Positions 6,660-55,262 of a stretch of 64,000 nucleotides of DNA are shown here, one piece after another; positions within the stretch are counted from its first letter, which is position 1; each line of letters starts with the position of its first letter. The stretch comes from a virus (Duplodnaviria; Caudoviricetes), in IMG/VR virus record IMGVR_UViG_3300037067_002612, positions 1-64,000 of that record; one strand, written 5' to 3'. Made by a program: the position numbers and the translations under genes. The notes beneath the pieces are model-generated. The model was not told the origin of the DNA. It saw only the letters and a program-made list of their open reading frames with translations, and did not search any database.

Positions 6660-6734
6660 TGGAAGTAAGGTAAGCTGGTTGCATCCGAATCTCTTATAAG
6701 GATTTTTAGGCGAGTCCGATTCTCGCACTTCCTA
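6660..6734 (+). tRNA. tRNA-Ile (anticodon TAT)
   Basis: acceptor GGAAGT/ACTTCC; anticodon stem AATCT/GGATT with loop CT-TAT-AA; T-stem GCGAG/CTCGC; atypical 1:72 pair, D-arm and TCCGATT T-loop. Confidence 0.7.
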
Positions 6735-6772
6735 CTTTTTTTTATATTATTATATTAAGGACACTATAAGCC

Positions 6773-43785: not shown

Positions 43786-45756
43786 GTGATTATAACATAC
43801 TTCCGCAGTTCATCCTTTAATAATTGGCAGCTTTGCCAGATGCAATACTTCATTACGTATGTATTGGGTGTGCAAGCACCTTCTGGTAAAAAAGCGGAAA
43901 TGGGAACAATTCTTCATAAGGTAATGGAGTGTTTAGCGAATGTCAAAAAACACATTCAAGATGATAATACAAGCGATATTAAAGACAATGTGGTAGGTGT
44001 ACTTCCTGCTAATGAGAGTTTATTATATACAGACGCGTTTGTCAAAGATATATTTAACAAAGCATATCAATATTATACGTCTCCTACTAATACCGTGCAT
44101 CCATATTATCCCAAGGATAAGGAAACCATCTGGGAATGGATTTTACAAACACTGGCATTTGGCAAGGGAATGTTTGACCCACGGTTAAGTAATATCGTAG
44201 CAGCAGAACCATTTTTTGATTTTGTAATTGACGAACCTTGGGCTCAATACAAGTATGTATTACCTGATGGTAACACTATCGAGGGAAAATTGAGTATTAA
44301 GGGAACGATAGACCTTGTAACAAAAGTGGATGAGAATCATTATGAGATAGTAGACTGGAAAGGTTTACCACTAGACACACCAATACCAACGGTTGGTGGA
44401 TGGACAACTATGGAGCAAATATCTATTGGTGATACCGTGTTTGACCAGAATGGTCATCAGTGTAAAGTTATCGGTAAGTCAACTGAAAAGATGAAACAAT
44501 GTTACACTATTACATTTGATGATAAAAGTCAGGTTACATGTGATGAAGACCATTTATGGAAATTAAATACTGATAGTGTTATCAATATACAAAATCTAAA
44601 AATTGGCGATAAAATATCAGTTACAAAACCACTTGTAATAGACGATGTTGAATTACCTATACATCCGTATGTACTTGGGGCGTGGCTTAGGGACGGAAAA
44701 AATAGGAGTGGAGAAATAAGCGGAATAGATTCAGAAATATTTGAAAAGATTGAACAATGTGGATTTAATGTTGGTCCAGATATTAGCTGTAAAAATGACA
44801 GTTGTTCATCACGAACAATTTATGGTCTAACCACTAAACTAAAACCACTTGGAGTCTTACATAATAAACATATTCCTGATATTTATTTACGTTCTTCATA
44901 TAATCAAAGACTAGAGTTATTACGTGGACTCATGGACACAGATGGAAATGCCAATCCGTATAGACATCAGGCGTGTTTTATCACCACAACCCCACGCCTT
45001 TCTGACAATATTATAGAGTTGTTGTTATCGCTTGGGCAAAGACCTAATTGTTTTGAGGATAATAAAGAAACCAATTTCGCAAAATCATGTCATTATTACC
45101 AAATACAATTTAGACCAGTAGATATTAATCCTTTTTATATTACAAGAAAAAGAGAACAAATCAAAAGTGAATGGGGTAACGGCGTATCAAACATACGAAG
45201 AGTTATCAAAATAGAAAAGAATATTATACAACCAACACAGTGTATTATGGTAGACAGTCCAGATAATACATATTTATGCACAAAGCGTATGATTCCAACA
45301 CATAATACCGGCGAGTGTAAAAATTGGGGTACTGGTGCCGAAAAAGACTATAAAGACTTTTGTGTTGACCCACAACTTCGCTTTTATCATTTGGCATTGC
45401 ATAAGCTATTTCCACAAGTTGAATATTTTACTATGACTATAAACTATGTCAGAACGGCCGGGGCTTTTACGGTCGCGTATGATAACTCTGATTGTAAAGC
45501 CATGCTGGAAGACTTACGACAAAGATTCCATATCATACAACAATGTAAATCACCTAAACCAAAATCTCGTCAGTGTAATCATTGGTTCTGCCAGCGTGTA
45601 TGCTGGTATGGAAAAACTCCTCATCCTAAGAATCCATCTCAAAATATGTGTCAATATTCCCAAGAACAATTACACAAACATGGACTAAACCAAACCATGA
45701 AAAATGAAATGTGTTCAACTTTTAACCATGAACATTACTCTAATCCAGGTGAGTAA
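43786..45756 (+). CDS. PD-(D/E)XK exonuclease (RecB/Cas4-like), intein-containing
   Basis: SS....C, G..H, E..F, GTIDL, VDWK|TG, QL..Y, C-terminal C...C. Confidence 0.85.
   Translation: MIITYFRSSSFNNWQLCQMQYFITYVLGVQAPSGKKAEMGTILHKVMECLANVKKHIQDDNTSDIKDNVVGVLPANESLLYTDAFVKDIFNKAYQYYTSPTNTVHPYYPKDKETIWEWILQTLAFGKGMFDPRLSNIVAAEPFFDFVIDEPWAQYKYVLPDGNTIEGKLSIKGTIDLVTKVDENHYEIVDWKGLPLDTPIPTVGGWTTMEQISIGDTVFDQNGHQCKVIGKSTEKMKQCYTITFDDKSQVTCDEDHLWKLNTDSVINIQNLKIGDKISVTKPLVIDDVELPIHPYVLGAWLRDGKNRSGEISGIDSEIFEKIEQCGFNVGPDISCKNDSCSSRTIYGLTTKLKPLGVLHNKHIPDIYLRSSYNQRLELLRGLMDTDGNANPYRHQACFITTTPRLSDNIIELLLSLGQRPNCFEDNKETNFAKSCHYYQIQFRPVDINPFYITRKREQIKSEWGNGVSNIRRVIKIEKNIIQPTQCIMVDSPDNTYLCTKRMIPTHNTGECKNWGTGAEKDYKDFCVDPQLRFYHLALHKLFPQVEYFTMTINYVRTAGAFTVAYDNSDCKAMLEDLRQRFHIIQQCKSPKPKSRQCNHWFCQRVCWYGKTPHPKNPSQNMCQYSQEQLHKHGLNQTMKNEMCSTFNHEHYSNPGE
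44362..45306 (+). mobile_element. class 3-type intein with LAGLIDADG domain (315 aa), Gly at position 1
   Basis: GLPLDTPIPT start; DEDHLW, TQCIMVD and IPTHN|T match the class 3 WCT signature; LGAWLRDG and LRGLMDTDG. Confidence 0.85.
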
Positions 45757-45768
45757 GGAGAATTTTAT

Positions 45769-46185
45769 ATGTCACGAGGCAAGAAAATATGTCCAAAGTG
45801 TAAAACTGAATGTGGCGTAAGAACAAAAATTTGTCAAAAGTGTAAATATGATTTTGCAAGAACACCACAGAAAGTTAATAATAAAACGAATCGTAGACGA
45901 AAAAAGAAGACGGATACTCCAAGTGGAACCTGGGTATATGACCTGCCACCCGGTATGCCAAAAATACAAAAACCACAACCTTTACCAGATGGCCCAGTAG
46001 ACAATATAGTTTTATATGAGTATTGTGTATATAATGGATTTGGTAACGCAATCTTTGAAGAAATACCTAATCACAAGATTGCAGACCACGTACTGCGTAA
46101 AAAATGGCAAAAGGCCCATGACGCAATGCACGAAGCGTGGACATATTTGACTAAATATTTAGAAAAGGCTTTTAACAATGAGTAA
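45769..46185 (+). CDS. zinc-ribbon basic protein
   Basis: GKK.CPKC....G.R...C.KC. Confidence 0.6.
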   Translation: MSRGKKICPKCKTECGVRTKICQKCKYDFARTPQKVNNKTNRRRKKKTDTPSGTWVYDLPPGMPKIQKPQPLPDGPVDNIVLYEYCVYNGFGNAIFEEIPNHKIADHVLRKKWQKAHDAMHEAWTYLTKYLEKAFNNE

Positions 46186-46426
46186 TACCACCACAACAAA
46201 AAAGGTTCAAATTAATATCAACCGTAAGTTGATGTCTCACGATATAGTCCAACAACTAAGAGATACAATCAACGCAGAAGGAATGTTAGCAGGAAGTGCA
46301 GTATTAAATCTGTTGGATGAATACGACAGACTTAGGTATTTATCTGAGGGTTTAGCAACAGCTTATATGAAACAAAAACCACATGATATTAAGAAAATAA
46401 TGGAGATTTTGCAATTAATTCTTTAA
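46178..46426 (+). CDS. hypothetical protein
   Basis: ORF in operon. Confidence 0.5.
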   Translation: MSNTTTTKKVQININRKLMSHDIVQQLRDTINAEGMLAGSAVLNLLDEYDRLRYLSEGLATAYMKQKPHDIKKIMEILQLIL

Positions 46427-46452
46427 CAGTAAACTTATGAGGAAGAAGGACA

Positions 46453-46799
46453 ATGAAATTACTTGATAAATATAACTCCTTGCGGCAACAATTATTTGAT
46501 TATTTTGGTTATGTTGAAGATTGTAGGATTTTACCGATAGACGATGCTAGACAATACTATTGGTATTTAACCGGCGAGTCCTATGGAGACGAAGTATGTT
46601 TTGCCAAATATGAATGTAATCTATTTAAGATGATGGATATTCAAACGATATTTATACTCAACGACATTTGCCCAAATGGGTATATCGCGGAGATGAATAT
46701 ACCATGATAGTTGTTGATACACATTGTGATGGCAACCAATTTTTACAGATTTTTGATAATACTAAAGAAAGACCAATGAGGGATACAGAAAATGACTGA
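46453..46799 (+). pseudogene. phage hypothetical gene with a frameshift near 46627-46629
   Basis: FDYFGYVED N-half; the protein-like C-half DDGYSNDIYTQRHLPKWVYRG...VDTHCDGNQFLQIFDN lies in the -1 frame and ends overlapping the next start. Confidence 0.6.
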
Positions 46800-47214
46800 T
46801 ATATTTGCTCATTCCGTATCTAGGTTTATACAAACCGAAAGAGAAAAGACCCCCGTGATTCTTGACAAAGCTCACGCTCATGGTAAAATACTAGAGAAGT
46901 TGGACAGGTTCAATCGGGCAGATGGCGATATATTGTCTGCTCTTGTAGAACTGGCGGGCATTGCCCAGATTATTGCGGAAAAATTAGGTCTTGTAGAGGA
47001 AACGAACACCACGGAAATTCAGGCGATTCGTCAATCCGTAGACAACATAGCAGAAACTTCTAGGCAGGTTATTGATTTAATAGCCAGCAATCTAAAATCA
47101 TTACCACCATTACAAAAAAACGGACCAAGACAAATACATATTGAACTCACAAACAATGAGCTTAAGCAATTACTTGAGTGCTTAAAAGAGCTTGGTGATA
47201 TAGTAAAATCATAA
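46792..47214 (+). CDS. hypothetical protein
   Basis: ORF in operon. Confidence 0.55.
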   Translation: MTDIFAHSVSRFIQTEREKTPVILDKAHAHGKILEKLDRFNRADGDILSALVELAGIAQIIAEKLGLVEETNTTEIQAIRQSVDNIAETSRQVIDLIASNLKSLPPLQKNGPRQIHIELTNNELKQLLECLKELGDIVKS

Positions 47215-47251
47215 TACATTAATCACTTTTTATATGGAGGACAAAAAAAAG

Positions 47252-48630
47252 ATGACGATGAAGACGTACTTTCCGCTTCATTGTCATTCTTAGGTGGGTC
47301 TCATTACTCACTTTTGGATGGCCTAAGTAAACCTAGTCAAATTGCCAAGCGTTGCATAACAGCCCAACTACATGGGTCAGCCCTCACTGACCACGGCAGT
47401 ATATCAGGGGCTATTAGTTTTATGCAAGCAATGTCAGATAAAAACCTGCAATTCATCATGGGATGTGAGTTGTATGTTTGTCCACAAGACCCCAGTATTA
47501 AAGATAAGGATAGAACCCTACATCATTTGGTGGTGTTGGCAAAAAATCTACAAGGTTGGAAAAGCTTAGTCAACATAGTCAGTGAATCTAATAAACCAGA
47601 AAACTTTTACTATAAGCCTCGACTAAACTTAGATACACTTGCACAATTAAACAACGGTAATCTAATAGCTTTCAGCGGACACTTAGGCTCACATTTATCT
47701 CATTGTATATTGCAAGACATTAACGGAGCCACTGGTTGTGCGACCGTAGATGAAGTCAAAAAGTTTGCCAACCCAAATTGGGTTAAAGATACAACTGAGA
47801 TGGCCAAACGCCTTCAAGACATATTTGGAAAAGACCACTTTTTCTTGGAAGTTCAGCTAATAGATACATTACTTCCTGCTAATAAATTGCTTGCGATGGG
47901 CTTACGTTATATCTCCAAGCAAACTGGCATACCGTTGATTGCTACTCCAGACGCCCACTATGCTGAGAAAGAAGATGCGGTTGACCAGAGAGTATTATTA
48001 TGTAATGCGTTGCACACAACATTTCGGGAAGTAGAACATAAAATGACCCTGGGCGAAGACGTTGGTTTGGGGGCATTTTTTAAATCAAGAAATTATCATA
48101 TTCCGTCATATGAAGAAATGCTCAACTGTGGAAATACAGAAGAAGAGTTAGAAAATACCATTAAAATCGCCTCAATGTGTGAGTCATATAGTATTACAGA
48201 CAAACCTCAATTACCACGATTTATTTGTCCAAACAATATTGCATCGGAAGATTATCTCAACGAGTTGGTAGATATAGGATGGAAAGAAAGATGGCCTAAA
48301 ATTCAAAAAATAATTACTAATACATCTCACACAGAAGCAGAATATAAAGAAAGACTTTCATATGAACTGGAAGTTTTAAAGGAAGCTGGACTATCAGATT
48401 ATTTTCTCATCGTTAATGATATAATTAACTGGGCACGGACTCAAGGACAATTATGTGGTCCTGGGCGAGGTTCAAGTTCTGGCTCATTAGTATTATATTT
48501 ATTGGGCGTCACGCAAATCGACCCTATAGAATATGACTTATTATTTTCTAGGTTTTACAATAATTCTCGAAATATTAGTTCACATGTGTCATTCCCAGAA
48601 TATTCATTTCTAAAATATATCAGTGTGTAG
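47252..48630 (+). CDS. dnaE: DNA polymerase III alpha, part 1 (PHP + palm N-part), with an 11-nt interruption at 47291-47301
   Basis: GGAGG SD; YFPLHCHS + HYSLLDG, LTDHG, GCE.Y, HL.VLAKN, YKPR, DAHY, GPGRGS..GSLV.Y.LG.T.IDP, LLFSRF. Confidence 0.9.
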
Positions 48631-48639
48631 AAAGCAACT

Positions 48640-49533
48640 ATGGACAATATTGCAAAATTGCAAAGCCTAAGCTATAATATAAACTTAGATAAGCTTGAAC
48701 AATTAAAAAATAATAAATATTTTCAGTCTGAGTTAGACATTATATTCTCTTCTAAGCAAGTTACATCATATTACATATATATTATCAAGAGTGTAGAATT
48801 AGACAAAACAAATTCACAAAATAGTTATATTATGTGGGTGTTTGATAAGGTTGATGAAATAAACTTAAATCAACCAGCAAATATTGTACCAAGTAGAGTT
48901 AGTTTACCAGATGTTGATATGGATTTTGAAATTAGACAACGAGGCAGTATAATTGAATACATTCGTAATAAATATGGTAGTGAATACGTTGGACAAATGT
49001 TGACATTTACACGATTACAGGGGCGAGGAGCCTTAAAAGACGTTCTACGTGCTCATGGTGTGGTTACACCGAAAGAAATGGATATAATTACATCTTGCAT
49101 ACCTGGCGAGTCTGAAATATCTGACCAACTACAAGAAATGAAGGATGCTGATAAAAATGACGGTGGCGATGGAGAAGCCAGTATTATTCAATGGGCCATA
49201 GAACATCACGCTAAAGACCTAAAACCCTGGGTTTATTTAGATAATGACGGTAACTTACAGGGGCCTCTGAGTAAATACTTTGAACAAGCAATTCGCATCG
49301 AAGGTACTAAAAAATCTCAAAGTAAACATCCAGCCGGTGTCATAATTTCTAAAGAGCCACTTGCCAGTATATGCCCGATGGTGTATGATAAAACGACAGA
49401 GGAAATGATATGCGGGATGGAAATGTCGGACATGGAGGCTATGGGGTTGGTCAAGATGGATTGTCTTGGGGTTTCTGTCTTAGACAAAGTTCATAATGTT
49501 ATACGATTATTAGCAGGAAGTGCAATGGAGTAG
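48640..49533 (+). CDS. dnaE: DNA polymerase III alpha, part 2 (catalytic palm/thumb)
   Basis: RVSLPDVDMDF catalytic aspartates, HPAGVIIS, GLVKMDCLG. Confidence 0.9.
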   Translation: MDNIAKLQSLSYNINLDKLEQLKNNKYFQSELDIIFSSKQVTSYYIYIIKSVELDKTNSQNSYIMWVFDKVDEINLNQPANIVPSRVSLPDVDMDFEIRQRGSIIEYIRNKYGSEYVGQMLTFTRLQGRGALKDVLRAHGVVTPKEMDIITSCIPGESEISDQLQEMKDADKNDGGDGEASIIQWAIEHHAKDLKPWVYLDNDGNLQGPLSKYFEQAIRIEGTKKSQSKHPAGVIISKEPLASICPMVYDKTTEEMICGMEMSDMEAMGLVKMDCLGVSVLDKVHNVIRLLAGSAME

Positions 49534-49535
49534 AA

Positions 49536-49784
49536 ATGGGAGAAATATCTACATATGACGAAATATTTACACATGGCGAAAGAATTCCATGCCCATATTG
49601 TGCTGAACACAGACACGATAAATATACACAAGTATTACAATGCATATATCAAAATTATAGCGGATGTTCTGTAGATATAGGATTTTGCCCACAGTGTGGT
49701 AATAGTTATCAAATCAGTTATAAAATACATTCTATTATACAAAGAAAAAAGGAAGCAGATAATGTGGATACAACGACATGTTGA
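49536..49784 (+). CDS. zinc-finger protein
   Basis: CPYC...CPQCG. Confidence 0.6.
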   Translation: MGEISTYDEIFTHGERIPCPYCAEHRHDKYTQVLQCIYQNYSGCSVDIGFCPQCGNSYQISYKIHSIIQRKKEADNVDTTTC

Positions 49785-50010
49785 TGAAATGCCAGATGAA
49801 AATGGTCGGCATAGAGGTCAACGATTAGAGATAGTTATTAATAACACAAACTGTGTGTTGTGTGCTGGTGAGTGGGACACGCCTGATTCGGAGCAAATCA
49901 AAATATTGGAAGAATATATAGAAAAGTTAAAAAATTGGCTTCCCAAGTTAATACAAGAGTTTAATGTTATCAAACAATATGTAGAGAGTAATCCAAATAA
50001 AACATATTAA
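49762..50010 (+). CDS. hypothetical protein
   Basis: ORF with AAGGAAG upstream. Confidence 0.55.
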   Translation: MWIQRHVDEMPDENGRHRGQRLEIVINNTNCVLCAGEWDTPDSEQIKILEEYIEKLKNWLPKLIQEFNVIKQYVESNPNKTY

Positions 50011-50019
50011 GGTTAATAC

Positions 50020-50325
50020 ATGAATATCACGCAAGAGTTAATTGAAAAAATCATCGCTAAACATAAGCCTGACGAACATGGTCCGTTGGCTAAATATGTC
50101 AGTAAAACAATCACAGATATAAATTATATCGACGTGACGATGACAGCATATAAAAAACAAATTATAAACATCGAAAAAGAAGCTAGCAAACAAATTAAAG
50201 AAATTCAAACATTAATAGTAAAATTACAAAATAAATGTCCTCATTTGTTGACTCAGTATTATCCAGACCCATCCGGTGGTAATGACTCATCTATAGAATG
50301 TGAAATATGTGGAGCAGAATTATAA
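50020..50325 (+). CDS. hypothetical protein
   Basis: coiled coil then CPH...DPSGGNDS..C.ICG. Confidence 0.6.
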   Translation: MNITQELIEKIIAKHKPDEHGPLAKYVSKTITDINYIDVTMTAYKKQIINIEKEASKQIKEIQTLIVKLQNKCPHLLTQYYPDPSGGNDSSIECEICGAEL

Positions 50326-50537
50326 TGGTTATCATTATTTCAATTATAATATATGTATTAGGAATAGTATTAATATCTATTATGTTTGGTTTAATATGTG
50401 ATAGCATGGCTGATTTGCTGCCGTTTACACTACTTTGGCCAGTATTATTATGTGTGTGTATATTATGCTTATGTGTGTATATTATAGCATATCCATCTTA
50501 TTTACTTGGTATAAAACTTAAATCTATGAAAGGATAA
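50325..50537 (+). CDS. small two-TM membrane protein
   Basis: hydrophobic; LLPFTLLWP. Confidence 0.6.
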   Translation: MVIIISIIIYVLGIVLISIMFGLICDSMADLLPFTLLWPVLLCVCILCLCVYIIAYPSYLLGIKLKSMKG

Positions 50538-50539
50538 AA

Positions 50540-50779
50540 ATGATTTTAACACCTGCATATATTGTTATAATACTGTATGTCTTGGGAATATTGATTAGTA
50601 CAATTATTTTAGGTTGTATAGCGTCTGTTGAAGAACCTATCTTTAATGAGTACAATGATACAACCTGTTTATTACCATTGGTACTAGCGTGACCATTTAC
50701 GTTATGTGCGGGTATAATTATATTATTTTTAATTTCTCCTTATATCATTGTCATTAAACTCAGAAGGTGGTTTGCTTAA
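50540..50779 (+). pseudogene. tandem paralog of the preceding membrane protein with an internal TGA
   Basis: YVLGI..., LLPLVLA*PFTLC aligns with LLPFTLLWPVLLC; frame stays open to 50779. Confidence 0.65.
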
Positions 50780-50780
50780 A

Positions 50781-51131
50781 ATGAAAACACGAGCCGGATT
50801 TGTTAGTAATAGTAGTTCAAGCTCATTTGTTATACTTGGCTTTAATAGTGATAATATCCATGTTGATTTTAGTAAGGTTTTTGCCACTGAATTAGAGACA
50901 TATAGACAAAGTATTTTATCTACAAGGAAAAATATAGACGAGTGTGTAGAAGATAGACTACAAGACCTAATATACGATAATTCGGCGGCAGATGGCAAAT
51001 TTGTAGGACGGAGATTATATCAATTATCATATTCGCTCGATGAACTACGGGAAATGGCACAACATATAGCATACAAATACGGTGTTAGGATTGATGATAT
51101 AAGATTGTTGATTGGAACTGAGTGGAATTAA
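50781..51131 (+). CDS. MK.R.GFVSNSSSSSF-family phage protein
   Basis: diagnostic N-terminal MKTRAGFVSNSSSSSF. Confidence 0.75.
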   Translation: MKTRAGFVSNSSSSSFVILGFNSDNIHVDFSKVFATELETYRQSILSTRKNIDECVEDRLQDLIYDNSAADGKFVGRRLYQLSYSLDELREMAQHIAYKYGVRIDDIRLLIGTEWN

Positions 51132-51133
51132 AA

Positions 51134-51925
51134 ATGCGTTCTCATAAATGGTATTGCCCAGATTGTGTTGTGATGTATCAATCTAAACAATCCATAAAAC
51201 AATATACCTGCAAGTGTGGCAAGGCCATGAAACCAATGCCACCAAACAAACAAACATGTTTTTTCATAGCTGTAACACCAGACGACAAACCACAGATTGT
51301 TCGTAAAAATAAAAATAATGGCGACTACATTCAATCTATTAAACATAACTATTCCAATTATTTAAAATGTGTAAATAAAAAAGAATATGATATTGTTAAG
51401 ATTACCGGAGAATATTATCATGTGATTACCTCTAAACACAAGCTATGGTGTATTCAGGGGTTTAATATCCAAACTAATAAAAAAACCAATGTATATCCAT
51501 TAAGTTATGCATTATGGGCATTGTGTAAAAATAAAAATGACTTTGATTTCAAACAAAGACCTAACCCACGACAAAATCCCAATAAATATCGTTTACGTGC
51601 TACAAAAAAGAAGTATAAAGCAAAATATCAAAAACTACAACAAATAGTACATAGCAAAGATGGATATTCTTGGTATTTAACAACTAAGCATTGGCAAAAG
51701 TTTCGTAAGCGAGCTTTAGAATATTATGGATATCGTTGTGGTCTTTGCGGGACGGACCAAGGTTTACAGGTGCATCATTTACATTATAAAACATTGTTTC
51801 GAGAATCATTCAAAGATGTAAAAGTATTGTGTGGATGTTGTCACGCAGAACAACATGGTTATGAGGGGTTGTCTGAACTAGATAAAGAAAATCTTAAACA
51901 CTTAAAAAATATTATGACAGAATAA
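51134..51925 (+). CDS. HNH endonuclease
   Basis: YL....W...R, CGLCG....LQVHH..Y......LC..CH. Confidence 0.8.
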   Translation: MRSHKWYCPDCVVMYQSKQSIKQYTCKCGKAMKPMPPNKQTCFFIAVTPDDKPQIVRKNKNNGDYIQSIKHNYSNYLKCVNKKEYDIVKITGEYYHVITSKHKLWCIQGFNIQTNKKTNVYPLSYALWALCKNKNDFDFKQRPNPRQNPNKYRLRATKKKYKAKYQKLQQIVHSKDGYSWYLTTKHWQKFRKRALEYYGYRCGLCGTDQGLQVHHLHYKTLFRESFKDVKVLCGCCHAEQHGYEGLSELDKENLKHLKNIMTE

Positions 51926-51938
51926 TGGTATATTAACA

Positions 51939-54900
51939 ATGAATCAACTTATTATGCCATGTGGGTGTTCATTCAACACAGCCGCCTCAGATGAATTACC
52001 GGATATTAATATTGATGTCTATGACAGCGAAATCCATCCGCCATTGGCTATAGATATTTATCATATTCCATTAGATTGTCCGAAAACATGGCATTTACTT
52101 ACTGATGGACACACAAAAGGAATATTCCAACTAGAAAGTCATTTAGGCAGAACGTGGGCTATAAAACTAAAACCAGAAAGCGTTGAAGAATTGTCTGCAT
52201 TGGTAAGTTTGATTCGACCGGGGTCGATGAACGTCAAATTTGGCAACCCACCCAAAAGTGTACCACAACATTATTGTGATAGAAAACATAAGCTGGAAGA
52301 TGTAGAGTATTTACACGAGGCATTGAAACCAATATTAGAAAAAACATACGGAATTATCGCATATCAGGAGGAAAGTATGCAAATTTCCGTTGTGTTGGCT
52401 GGTTTTGATTTACAAAAAGTCGATATACTCAGAAAATGTGTCGCTAAAGGAAGCTTGGTATATACACAAAACGGTCCAAAAAAAATAGAAGATTTATGTA
52501 ATTCAAAAGGTTCGCCACAAATATTAACAATTGATAATAAAAATAAACTTGTTTATAAAAAAATAAAAAGGGTATGGAATACAGGTATACAACAAACATA
52601 TAAAATCACTTGTAGTAAAGGATATCAAATATGTCTGACCGCAAAACACCAAGTATTTACTCAAGACGGATGGAAATCAGTAGAAGCATTAAATATATAC
52701 GATTTTATCGCCATACCAAAACAATATACATATAAGGGGTACGCGACCAAACACATTTCAATAGATGATGTTATTATTATGTCGTATCTTATATCAGAAG
52801 GGTATCATACCAAGCAACAAACAAAAATCACCAATTCTGATGAATGGGTTCTTAATATTATAAAACAATGCTTAAAAAATAAAAAAGCTGAAACCAAAGA
52901 ATATATACATAAAAATGGTTGTGTAGACATACATATTAAAGGTAAATATAAAAAATGGCTAGACCAACACATACAACATAATAAATCAAGATACAAAGTA
53001 ATTCCAAACGAAATTCTACATAATACCAATGGTTTTACACAGGCATTCGTGGGGCATTATTTTTCAGCAGAAGGTAGTGTAGGAAAATATGGTTTAGAAA
53101 TATCGTCAACATCACATGAAATCATACTTGCCTTACAAGCATTATTACTACGTGATAAAATACATAGTGGTATAAATATACATAACGGAACATATCTAAA
53201 CCAACCTTATGTTTCTTATAGACTATATATTTGTTCATTAGTAGATATGTATAAATTTCTTAAAACGTATCATGATTATATTTGCCCTAGAAAACTGGAA
53301 AAACTACAACATAACTTAAATACAAAGACTGAATATCAAACATATAATAATAATAGATTTTTAATACCTGCGTGTTTTATTAAAGCCGCAACAAAACACA
53401 TATGTCTTAGTTCTGTGTTAGGCTCTCCATGCGGGTCAGACTATAACAAAAATCAAACTTATGATAGGGCAGAAAGACTAAATCAAATTATTGACTCTGA
53501 ATTATTGTCTACTATATTAAACGCAGATTTTAGGTTAGTACAAGTCACCGGTGTAACTACACATGGTCAAGAAGAGACATATGATTACGAAATTGATGAT
53601 GATAATATCCATTATGGTTTTATAAATGGTATATTAGTACATAATAGCATTGGTAAGAAAAAAGCCGATATTATGGCTAAAGTACAAGCCATGTTTATGG
53701 ATGGATGCAAGCAAACCGCCGTTGTAACACAAGAGCAAGCCGAAGAAATATTTGGTTGGATAAAAGAGTCACAACGCTACTCATTTAATAAATCTATCAC
53801 ACCAGACACATTAGTGGTTACTTCTGACGGAACTACAAAAACCATTAGTGATATACAAATTGGAGAAAAAATTCAGTGTCCAAACATAATGAATCGCCTC
53901 TCATATGAAAATGAGTATTGTGCTGTTATAAATAAATTTAACCACGGGAAACAAGACGTATACGAAGTAGAATTAGTAAGTGGTCAAAAAATCAAATGTA
54001 CTATGCAACATAAATTTTTGTGCCAAGACAGTGTGATGAGACCACTGTATGAAATTATAAAAGACCACCATTTTATTCTTTGTAGAACCGTTTATTATGA
54101 TATACCTTTAATCTCCGAAAGAATAATATCCATCCAATACATAGGTAAAATAGATACCATGGATATTGAAGTTGACAACCCAGAACATGTTTTTTATGCC
54201 AATGGGATAGCCACTTCTAATTCACATGGTGTATCATATGGATTAATATCATATTGGACCGCATATCTCAAAGCTCACTTTCCACAACAGTTTTATTGTT
54301 CATATTTACATGGGGCGTTAGACAAACAAGACACTCGGCAGGAAATCAAAGAATTAGTCAATCACGCCAAACAAGACAGCAATTTAACCATGTGTGTTCC
54401 AGATTTTAGACATCAACGAACAAAACCATATATTAAAAATCATTCAGTTTACTTTGGAATAGATAGCATAAAAAAAATCGGCGACGCATCTCTCAAAAAG
54501 ATTATCAACGCTATAACCGAAATTAAAAAACCGATAGCTGACTGGACATGGTTGGATTATCTATTGTTGTTTTCTGATAAGATTTCCACCACATCTAATA
54601 CGGCTATTATTTCAAGTGGCGGGCTTGATTATACAAGTAAGTCCCGTACTGAAATGCTTTATGAATTTGAGGTTTGGAATCAACTGACGACTAGCGAAAA
54701 GGCGTATGTCCACAATATATATAATGATAATAAATTGTCTGAAAAATATACCTTGCACTCTCTGCTGAATTTGTGTGGTAATACTAAGAAGAATGGCGGT
54801 GGATGTCATAATTCAAAACGGGTTGACAAACTGCAAGATTTAATCAACATATTACAAAATCCGCCGCATAATCTACAAGACACTCCTGATTTTCTAGCGT

Positions 54901-55262
54901 GGTGTGAAGAACAATACCTGGGAGCGGCAATCACATGTAGTAGAATAGAAGGATGCCGCAAAGCCATAGACGCAAATACCACATGCAAAGAAATTGCCAG
55001 CGGCAAAGGACATAAATATTGTTTACTTGCTGTAGAAGTCACGGAAGTTAAAGAACATACAATTAAAAGCGAAAAAAACTATGGAGCGTTAATGGGGTTT
55101 ATAAACGTAGCTGATAAAACAGGCGAGTTAAATACGGTTATTTTCCCAGAGCAATGGAGTAAGTATGGCCACATGTTCTATACTGGAAATACACTATTAT
55201 TAGATGTAATATCGCAAAAACAAAATTCGTCACCTATTATTAATCAGGCCTGGCAAATATAA
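51939..55262 (+). CDS. dnaE: DNA polymerase III alpha, part 3 (fingers, HhH, OB), with two inteins
   Basis: IPLD, TKGIFQLES, IRPG, TYGII.YQE, RK|SIGKKK, YSFNK|SH..SY, YLKAHFP, FG...IK.IG, OB-fold C-terminus. Confidence 0.92.
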   Translation: MNQLIMPCGCSFNTAASDELPDINIDVYDSEIHPPLAIDIYHIPLDCPKTWHLLTDGHTKGIFQLESHLGRTWAIKLKPESVEELSALVSLIRPGSMNVKFGNPPKSVPQHYCDRKHKLEDVEYLHEALKPILEKTYGIIAYQEESMQISVVLAGFDLQKVDILRKCVAKGSLVYTQNGPKKIEDLCNSKGSPQILTIDNKNKLVYKKIKRVWNTGIQQTYKITCSKGYQICLTAKHQVFTQDGWKSVEALNIYDFIAIPKQYTYKGYATKHISIDDVIIMSYLISEGYHTKQQTKITNSDEWVLNIIKQCLKNKKAETKEYIHKNGCVDIHIKGKYKKWLDQHIQHNKSRYKVIPNEILHNTNGFTQAFVGHYFSAEGSVGKYGLEISSTSHEIILALQALLLRDKIHSGINIHNGTYLNQPYVSYRLYICSLVDMYKFLKTYHDYICPRKLEKLQHNLNTKTEYQTYNNNRFLIPACFIKAATKHICLSSVLGSPCGSDYNKNQTYDRAERLNQIIDSELLSTILNADFRLVQVTGVTTHGQEETYDYEIDDDNIHYGFINGILVHNSIGKKKADIMAKVQAMFMDGCKQTAVVTQEQAEEIFGWIKESQRYSFNKSITPDTLVVTSDGTTKTISDIQIGEKIQCPNIMNRLSYENEYCAVINKFNHGKQDVYEVELVSGQKIKCTMQHKFLCQDSVMRPLYEIIKDHHFILCRTVYYDIPLISERIISIQYIGKIDTMDIEVDNPEHVFYANGIATSNSHGVSYGLISYWTAYLKAHFPQQFYCSYLHGALDKQDTRQEIKELVNHAKQDSNLTMCVPDFRHQRTKPYIKNHSVYFGIDSIKKIGDASLKKIINAITEIKKPIADWTWLDYLLLFSDKISTTSNTAIISSGGLDYTSKSRTEMLYEFEVWNQLTTSEKAYVHNIYNDNKLSEKYTLHSLLNLCGNTKKNGGGCHNSKRVDKLQDLINILQNPPHNLQDTPDFLAWCEEQYLGAAITCSRIEGCRKAIDANTTCKEIASGKGHKYCLLAVEVTEVKEHTIKSEKNYGALMGFINVADKTGELNTVIFPEQWSKYGHMFYTGNTLLLDVISQKQNSSPIINQAWQI
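52437..53645 (+). mobile_element. intein with LAGLIDADG-like domain in DnaE (403 aa)
   Basis: CVAKGS...LTAKHQV...YLISEG...YFSAEG...TYDYEI...ILVHN|S. Confidence 0.9.
53793..54221 (+). mobile_element. mini-intein in DnaE (143 aa)
   Basis: SITPDT...CTMQHKF...TMDIEVD...ANGIATSN|S. Confidence 0.88.

Follow-up and report, generated by a model that had tools for sequence, protein, structure and literature searches.

Natural programmed translational bypassing has been established in only two systems, gene 60 of bacteriophage T4 with its relatives and the mitochondria of one yeast, with a phage terminase as a candidate. T4 gene 60 carries a 50-nt translational bypass together with a MobA homing-endonuclease element (bioRxiv 10.1101/2022.08.31.505936). 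In the terminase gene of Streptomyces phage phiHau3, a candidate short bypass has been described, for which a junction peptide was shown in E. coli at one site, and stem-loop and Shine-Dalgarno signals have been proposed (PMC10732093). To our knowledge, no natural bypass is as short as the one considered here, or has its landing site inside the take-off hairpin, and the literature that we searched holds no description of a comparable gap in dnaE. The window analysed here is a stretch of 64,000 nt of viral DNA, part of a 162-kb IMG/VR virus record. We suggest that 11 nt at positions 47291-47301, near the start of its dnaE gene, are likely a programmed translational bypass element and an independent miniature analogue of that of T4 gene 60. 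We put the probability of this reading at roughly 0.75; the hop itself is inferred, without experimental data. The features around the gap are the following, where the take-off and landing sites are named according to this reading.

47236-47240, plus strand: Shine-Dalgarno sequence GGAGG of the leader, read from the sequence
47252-47290, plus strand: leader open reading frame of 13 codons, encoding the first strand and the H-x-H of the PHP motif
47288-47290, plus strand: take-off codon TCT (Ser)
47291-47301, plus strand: 11-nt coding gap, consisting of the stop codon TAG (47291-47293), an interior (47294-47298) and the landing triplet TCT (47299-47301)
47302-48630, plus strand: resumed DnaE frame (PHP domain and first part of the palm), with CAT as the resume codon

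This anatomy is directly visible. The frame opened by ATG 47252 encodes M-T-M-K-T-Y-F-P-L-H-C-H-S and then meets TAG at 47291-47293. The long open reading frame, to which Pfam assigns PHP and Pol III alpha domains, lies in a different frame from the leader; it reads H-Y-S-L-L-D-G from 47302, and its sole upstream start is TTG 47281. Deleting exactly 47291-47301 joins the two frames to give L-H-C-H-S-H-Y-S-L-L-D-G, which is exactly what the gapless relative L001 encodes, and L001 in turn aligns without any gap to Pol III alpha of Thermus aquaticus (PDB 2hpi). The first criterion of bypassing, a coding gap whose removal restores a conserved frame, is therefore met. A preliminary description of this locus, made from sequence alone, had reported the Shine-Dalgarno sequence, H-C-H-S, the TAG, the 11-nt insert and the matched TCT codons, and had claimed that removing 47291-47301 restores the PHP start of DnaE. 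The former was confirmed on the sequence, and the latter held against L001 and PDB 2hpi. One consequence concerns annotation, as gene callers start these polymerase genes 3' of the gap and drop the metal-binding H-x-H.

The gap is conserved well beyond the window. A first scan of viral contigs recovered three homologues of about 50% protein identity (L001, L002 and L003): L001 has no gap; L003 (49% protein identity) has the identical 11 nt at the same codon; and L002 has a 17-nt gap that starts with TAA, is preceded by ACT and has ACT as its last triplet. The gap region of L002 (2980-3010) folds differently: most of its hairpin is formed by the gap, and the landing ACT belongs to the 3' arm; it appears to have arisen separately with the same logic. 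None of the 80 closest relatives of the window's protein has a gap. We then searched IMG/VR DNA with a pattern of His-x-His-x-stop, 3-30 free bases and the codons for Tyr-Ser-Leu-Leu-Asp-Gly, which matched 79 places, about 64 of them gapped dnaE 5' ends; four more places were found with TGA as the stop, and the same pattern with a GAC Asp codon returned no dnaE gaps. Further gap variants were added by a scan of metagenome contigs (JGI), in which four matches (L287, L319, L358 and L362) were rejected as false positives. Pooled over IMG/VR and metagenome contigs, with many independent assemblies, there are at least 40 distinct combinations of take-off codon, gap and resume codon. These counts are lower bounds, since neither the metagenome scan nor a scan based on the hairpin helix P1 (see below) was exhaustive, and most variants share ancestry, so that they do not count as independent events. 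Among cultured phages, a near-identity search returned no match and a protein search found relatives only below 35% identity, leaving no isolate available.

A DnaE tree places the window, with full support, among the gapless L005, L074, L006, L008 and L007, and forces at least eight changes of gap state. In its gap and in the 17 bases that follow, however, the window agrees with a distant clade of the tree, a pattern that suggests short-patch transfer or repeated loss.

Because some 40 stop-led variants sit at exactly the same codon of related dnaE genes, the gap is very likely neither chance nor artefact, a judgement that rests on assemblies without examination of raw reads. The rival that the gene is dead or the gap an assembly error has in its favor that the record is a metagenome assembly without a read-level check. 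Against an artefact, however, the same kind of gap occurs on dozens of independent assemblies, and both flanks and the hairpin are under selection. Against a dead gene, the window's dnaE is the sole polymerase gene found: it is the only dnaE in the 162-kb record, in which neither PolA nor PolB was found, and it is thus unlikely to be dead. We regard this rival as all but excluded. The preliminary description had kept open an intron scar, an inactivating insertion and an artefact as alternatives, all of which are disfavored by the family-wide data.

The downstream part of dnaE is itself broken up, and its further pieces lie as follows.

48640-49533, plus strand: second piece of dnaE (rest of the palm)
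51939-55262, plus strand: third piece of dnaE (fingers onward, with two inteins)

Pieces 1 and 2 are in the same frame within 48560-48900, split by one stop (48628-48630), and hold about 105 extra codons, absent in relatives, between F-Y-N-x-x-R-N and S-L-P-D-V-D-M-D-F. Neither intein motifs nor an Rfam intron could be seen, and the break may be either a split with added tails or a decayed insert. Between pieces 2 and 3 lies a 2.4-kb block of small open reading frames (49536-51925), the last of which (51122-51925) matches PHROG HNH endonuclease families. The inteins of piece 3 are a LAGLIDADG-domain intein at about residues 179-569 and a mini Hint at about residues 621-693.

The leader provides the next line of evidence. 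Among relatives, its amino acids are kept through synonymous change, with Leu encoded by five codons and the first His by CAC or CAT, and the codon comparison therefore shows the leader to be under protein-level selection, translated and needed as protein, which would be expected of a leader that is joined to the body. Of 48 gap variants, 39 have a leader of 14 codons (the window's has 13), compared with 9-11 codons in 70 of 80 gapless genes; the gapped leader is thus 3-4 codons longer. Its length might reflect a nascent-peptide signal as in gene 60, but its conserved residues are also PHP residues, so that the two constraints cannot be separated. Gap alleles have their own strong ribosome-binding site, of AGGAGA type and 7-9 nt before the leader ATG in all gap-bearing relatives, whereas in gapless genes of the same clade the start overlaps the stop of an upstream PD-(D/E)XK nuclease gene.

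These observations bear on the possibility that the two frames are never joined, and that DnaE starts at TTG 47281 or further 3' without the H-x-H, or that the 13-residue leader peptide and the body are separate products that associate. An in-frame TTG is indeed present in the window, the window's dnaE is already in at least three pieces, and some variants with gaps of 8, 9 and 12 nt offer a resumed-frame GTG directly behind the stop. However, in most 11-nt variants the surroundings of the gap contain no in-frame start at all. The preliminary description had pointed out that a start at TTG 47281 would lose the metal-binding H-x-H, which held, and there is no ribosome-binding site for this TTG. 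The PHP residues of the leader are kept through synonymous changes and are therefore needed as protein, and a peptide of 13-14 residues is not known to assemble in trans for this fold. We consider this rival very unlikely.

A further feature shared by the gap alleles is a hairpin of two nested helices, whose parts in the window are listed here with the evidence for each.

47283-47289, plus strand: 5' arm of helix P1 (Cys and His codons and the first two take-off bases); pairing, folding
47316-47322, plus strand: 3' arm of helix P1 (last base of the Leu codon, Asp and Gly codons); pairing, folding
47292-47299, plus strand: 5' arm of helix P2 (stop bases 2-3, gap interior and first landing base); pairing, covariation
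47300-47305, plus strand: apical loop (rest of the landing triplet, resume codon and first Tyr base); folding
47306-47313, plus strand: 3' arm of helix P2 (Tyr-Ser-Leu codons); pairing, covariation

The window's hairpin (47283-47322) has a folding energy of -17.9 kcal/mol (z -5.4), and none of 200 dinucleotide shuffles was as good. The 44 distinct gap variants fold to the same shape with a mean z of -5.7, compared with -2.7 kcal/mol (z 0.1) for the same region in gapless homologues. Certain codons are nearly invariant in gap alleles: in the leader, GTC encodes Val in 45 of 46 and CAT the second His in 49 of 49; downstream, the codon is TTG for the second Leu, GAT without exception for Asp and in most cases GGA for Gly. 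These fixed bases pair with each other as the 8-bp helix P1, which is complete in 42 of 49 gap variants (8/8 pairs) compared with a mean of 3.6 pairs in 85 gapless genes. Where Val has become Cys (the window, L201, L279 and L373), the Gly codon is GGC and the pair is kept; the window's P1 is one pair shorter than the consensus. A GAC Asp codon is found in 38 of 85 gapless genes and in no gap allele, the latter because the hairpin requires its absence. Hitch-hiking of the fixed synonymous sites with a converted patch was considered as an explanation and rejected, as synonymous sites that do vary are found both between the fixed ones and beyond them, precisely at the unpaired positions of the hairpin.

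Helix P2 is nested within P1: the stop codon and the gap interior pair with the Tyr-Ser-Leu codons, which leaves the landing triplet at the top. Its pairs covary. At the third base of the Ser codon four pair types occur (U-A in 29, A-U in 4, C-G in 3, plus wobble pairs), at that of Tyr G-C in 17 and A-U in 10, and at that of Leu A-U in 28 and U-A in 12. Swapping the 5' and 3' halves between variants costs a mean of 3.2 kcal/mol, and none of 300 permutations reached the native mean. The hairpin is thus conserved and supported by compensatory changes, as established by folding and sequence comparison, and the criterion of a take-off stem-loop is met by P1 and P2 (z -5.4, with covariation). The role of each helix, on the other hand, is inferred by analogy with gene 60. 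The sequence AGGTGG in the window's gap had been called Shine-Dalgarno-like in the preliminary description. Many gaps contain GGTG-like sequences, at a distance of 0 to 3 nt from the landing triplet, and several are not Shine-Dalgarno-like and still pair as P2. With a P2 arm that is not Shine-Dalgarno-like in other variants and a spacing to the landing triplet that is not constant, a general Shine-Dalgarno role lacks support, and AGGTGG is more readily understood as the P2 5' arm.

The gaps of the 40 variants are 5, 7, 8, 9, 10, 11, 12 or 17 nt long and fall into three frame classes of 19, 12 and 9 variants, and in the DnaE tree the frame class differs between close relatives. In addition, 3 of the 40 have a stop in the resumed frame within the gap, and in the nine in-frame variants the leading stop itself blocks the frame. 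Because the gaps span all three frame classes and include in-gap stops, neither a frameshift in one direction nor readthrough can serve the family, and therefore only a frame-blind mechanism fits; this frame-independence is shown by the variants themselves. The first triplet of the gap is TAA, TAG or TGA in every variant, and even the scan that required only helix P1 and no stop returned no dnaE gap that was not stop-led, so that the criterion of a stop in the A site is met throughout, including by a search blind to it.

Codon matching is equally apparent. The preliminary description had proposed aligning the dnaE 5' ends of related phages for inserts that keep a stop and matched codons; this was done, and the roughly 40 stop-led variants found are mostly of this kind. 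Take-off codon and landing triplet are cognate in 29 of 40 variants, with the first two bases in common and differences at the wobble position (TCT, TCC, TCA), and the only Thr take-off codon, the ACT of L002, has an ACT landing triplet, which makes it an independent pair. With TCT and TCT in the window, the matched-codon criterion is met. The other 11 of 40 have a non-cognate landing triplet (ACT, GCT, GCC, ACG, TTT or TGA), nine of which match at two of three bases (ACT, GCT, GCC, ACG) and two of which mismatch (TTT, TGA). These 11 count against bypassing, and it is possible that minimal pairing suffices or that another factor sets the landing. A comparison with decoy Ser triplets inside the gaps was uninformative, because no such triplet can arise in the gap interiors, even after shuffling.

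It might be argued that each frame class is recoded in its own way, leaving extra residues in the protein. In the window, this would be a -1 shift on T-TCT-TAG, in which tRNA(Ser) moves from UCU to UUC to give H-C-H-S-L-G-G-S-H-Y-S, and in other variants a +1 shift or readthrough of the stop codon, with the hairpin as a stimulator. The -1 frame is open across the window's gap, and a GGA anticodon is inferred to permit re-pairing from UCU to UUC. Hairpins immediately 3' of the shift site are classic stimulators. However, three separate mechanisms would be needed among close relatives, three variants carry an in-gap stop in the resumed frame, and the ACT of L002 is unable to re-pair at -1. The criteria for these mechanisms are not met either: for a -1 frameshift, there is no X-XXY-YYZ slippery heptamer in the window and no single family-wide frame change, and for readthrough, the leader and resumed frames differ in the window with its 11-nt gap and coincide in only 9 of the 40 variants. 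Moreover, recoding would insert 2 to 6 residues, dictated by RNA pairing, into a motif that aligns gap-free with a solved Pol III alpha. This rival thus appears very unlikely.

Removal of the gap from the RNA could also be imagined, by hairpin-guided cleavage and ligation as in an unconventional micro-intron. Both borders of the gap are unpaired in the conserved hairpin, one in the internal loop and one in the apical loop, and the repeated triplet leaves the borders ambiguous. Nevertheless, no such system is known to us in bacteria or phages, no Rfam family matches at the gap, the gap is far too short for self-splicing, and the idea predicts neither the universal leading stop nor the wobble-only variation of the last triplet; we hold it to be very improbable. 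A self-splicing intron proper was rejected, as its catalytic fold takes hundreds of nucleotides compared with the 11 nt of the gap, and no Rfam match was found. None of the rivals considered here is formally excluded without bench data, and each fails on at least one family-wide observation.

Our preferred reading remains bypassing, and it would proceed as follows. Ribosomes would initiate at ATG 47252, unwind P1 and P2 and make a 13-residue peptide. They would then pause with peptidyl-tRNA(Ser) on TCT 47288-47290 and the stop codon TAG in the A site. P2, which starts inside the stop codon, would re-form at the decoding site, so that release-factor action would be hindered and termination slowed. 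The tRNA would unpair, the mRNA would slide by 11 nt, and the same tRNA would re-pair with TCT 47299-47301 at the top of the hairpin. Decoding would restart at CAT 47302 and yield DnaE with an intact H-x-H-S-H-Y-S-L-L-D-G. No tRNA(Ser) gene was found in the phage genome. Its tRNA genes are Ile(TAT), Leu(TAA) and Lys(TTT) (window 6660-6735; genome 119502-119588 and 132983-133056), all of which read A-ending codons, and a tmRNA is reported by Rfam at 1460-1785 (74 bits), for which ARAGORN made no call.

The bypass reading is backed by the three frame classes, the cognate triplets, the stop-led gaps, the conserved leader and the covarying hairpin. The earlier proposal that the replicase is made by ribosome hopping over a short gap is supported by these comparative data, with the hop still inferred. 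Against it stands the absence of any junction peptide, reporter or RNA evidence, and the efficiency of the hop is unknown.

The element can also be linked, in some relatives and not in the window, to an HNH-type endonuclease gene, an addition to what had been proposed before. In these relatives, the leader contains the end of an open reading frame of about 240 aa. Such frames have no Pfam match, but they hit three PHROG families ("endonuclease", "HNH endonuclease" and "endonuclease VII") with E values of 1e-14 to 1e-31. An endonuclease homologue adjoins the leader at 11 of 63 non-redundant gap loci (three of the 11 being weak remnants) compared with 1 of 91 gapless loci (Fisher p 2e-4), and this association is shown by the data. 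The ribosome-binding site and first leader codons sit in the 3' end of the endonuclease open reading frame and are kept where that frame is absent. The sole gapless locus with a homologue is L001, where an intact endonuclease open reading frame (2262-2963) abuts the dnaE start, so the nuclease can occur without the gap.

No endonuclease gene lies beside the gap in the window, where four small upstream open reading frames are unmatched. These unknown frames (45769-47214) intervene between dnaE and the PD-(D/E)XK nuclease gene that directly precedes dnaE in relatives. That nuclease gene (43786-45756) encodes 656 aa here compared with about 347 aa in relatives, has a weak LAGLIDADG match and is likely an intein-bearing copy.

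We consider it likely that the gap, the leader extension and the ribosome-binding site arrived with an HNH-type homing endonuclease gene. In this scenario, a cassette of endonuclease gene, new start and gap would have entered dnaE, and the endonuclease gene would later have been lost in most lineages, that of the window included. The gap may make the DNA of the conserved motif a poor target for that nuclease; both cleavage and immunity are inferred.

A bolder reading, which we regard as no more than possible, is that the dnaE gaps form a new, independently evolved class of natural bypass, the shortest known, in which the hairpin hides the stop and holds the landing triplet in its loop, in which the landing is set by hairpin geometry to a greater extent than by codon-anticodon matching, and which spreads with a homing endonuclease as an immunity scar. 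If geometry set the landing, the landing triplets ACT, GCT, GCC and TGA would be accounted for. If bypassing in dnaE is true, it would add a second, unrelated phage family, and hopping would be a recurrent solution to gene damage borne by endonucleases. It would also offer a minimal system for the study of take-off, slide and landing, with gap lengths of 5-17 nt, some 40 variants from nature and a hairpin that is small and easily mutated.

How does the dnaE element compare with the systems already described? It resembles the stop-hops seen in E. coli reporters (bioRxiv 10.1101/2022.08.31.505936; Weiss et al. 1987), in which the peptidyl-tRNA re-pairs a few nucleotides downstream over a stop, independently of frame, and which have been described as hopping at a codon that is decoded slowly. 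Those reporter hops are synthetic or accidental and of low efficiency; the dnaE hop, in contrast, would be needed for an essential phage protein and has a conserved hairpin. The phiHau3 terminase shares with dnaE that a short coding gap lies in a phage gene, and differs in its slow A-site codon, the rare UUA, in the gene concerned, in the proposed regulation by tRNA supply and in the lack of a described endonuclease link (PMC10732093). The byp elements of Magnusiomyces capitatus mitochondria are likewise many short bypassed inserts with mostly matched codons that spread as mobile DNA (bioRxiv 10.1101/2022.08.31.505936). They are, however, 27-55 nt long, mitochondrial and distributed over many genes, and have in the A site a sense codon without a tRNA; their spread resembles that of GC clusters and is not tied to an endonuclease gene.

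The closest parallel is T4 gene 60. Common to both are matched take-off and landing codons, a stop directly 3' of the take-off codon, a stem-loop that has the take-off codon on its 5' side and an upper part beginning at the A-site codon, and a gap near the beginning of a replication gene that is split; some of the dnaE relatives show a further likeness, a free-standing gene for an HNH-type endonuclease just upstream. The differences are equally clear. The dnaE gap measures 5-17 nt compared with 50 nt, its landing triplet is inside the take-off hairpin rather than far beyond it, and the nascent chain has 13-14 residues compared with 46. A general Shine-Dalgarno-like element, a 5' stem-loop and a barrier to forward slippage were not identified in the dnaE element. 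Since the host gene is dnaE rather than a topoisomerase gene and no sequence similarity was seen, the dnaE element is best regarded as an analogue, and not a homologue, of gene 60.
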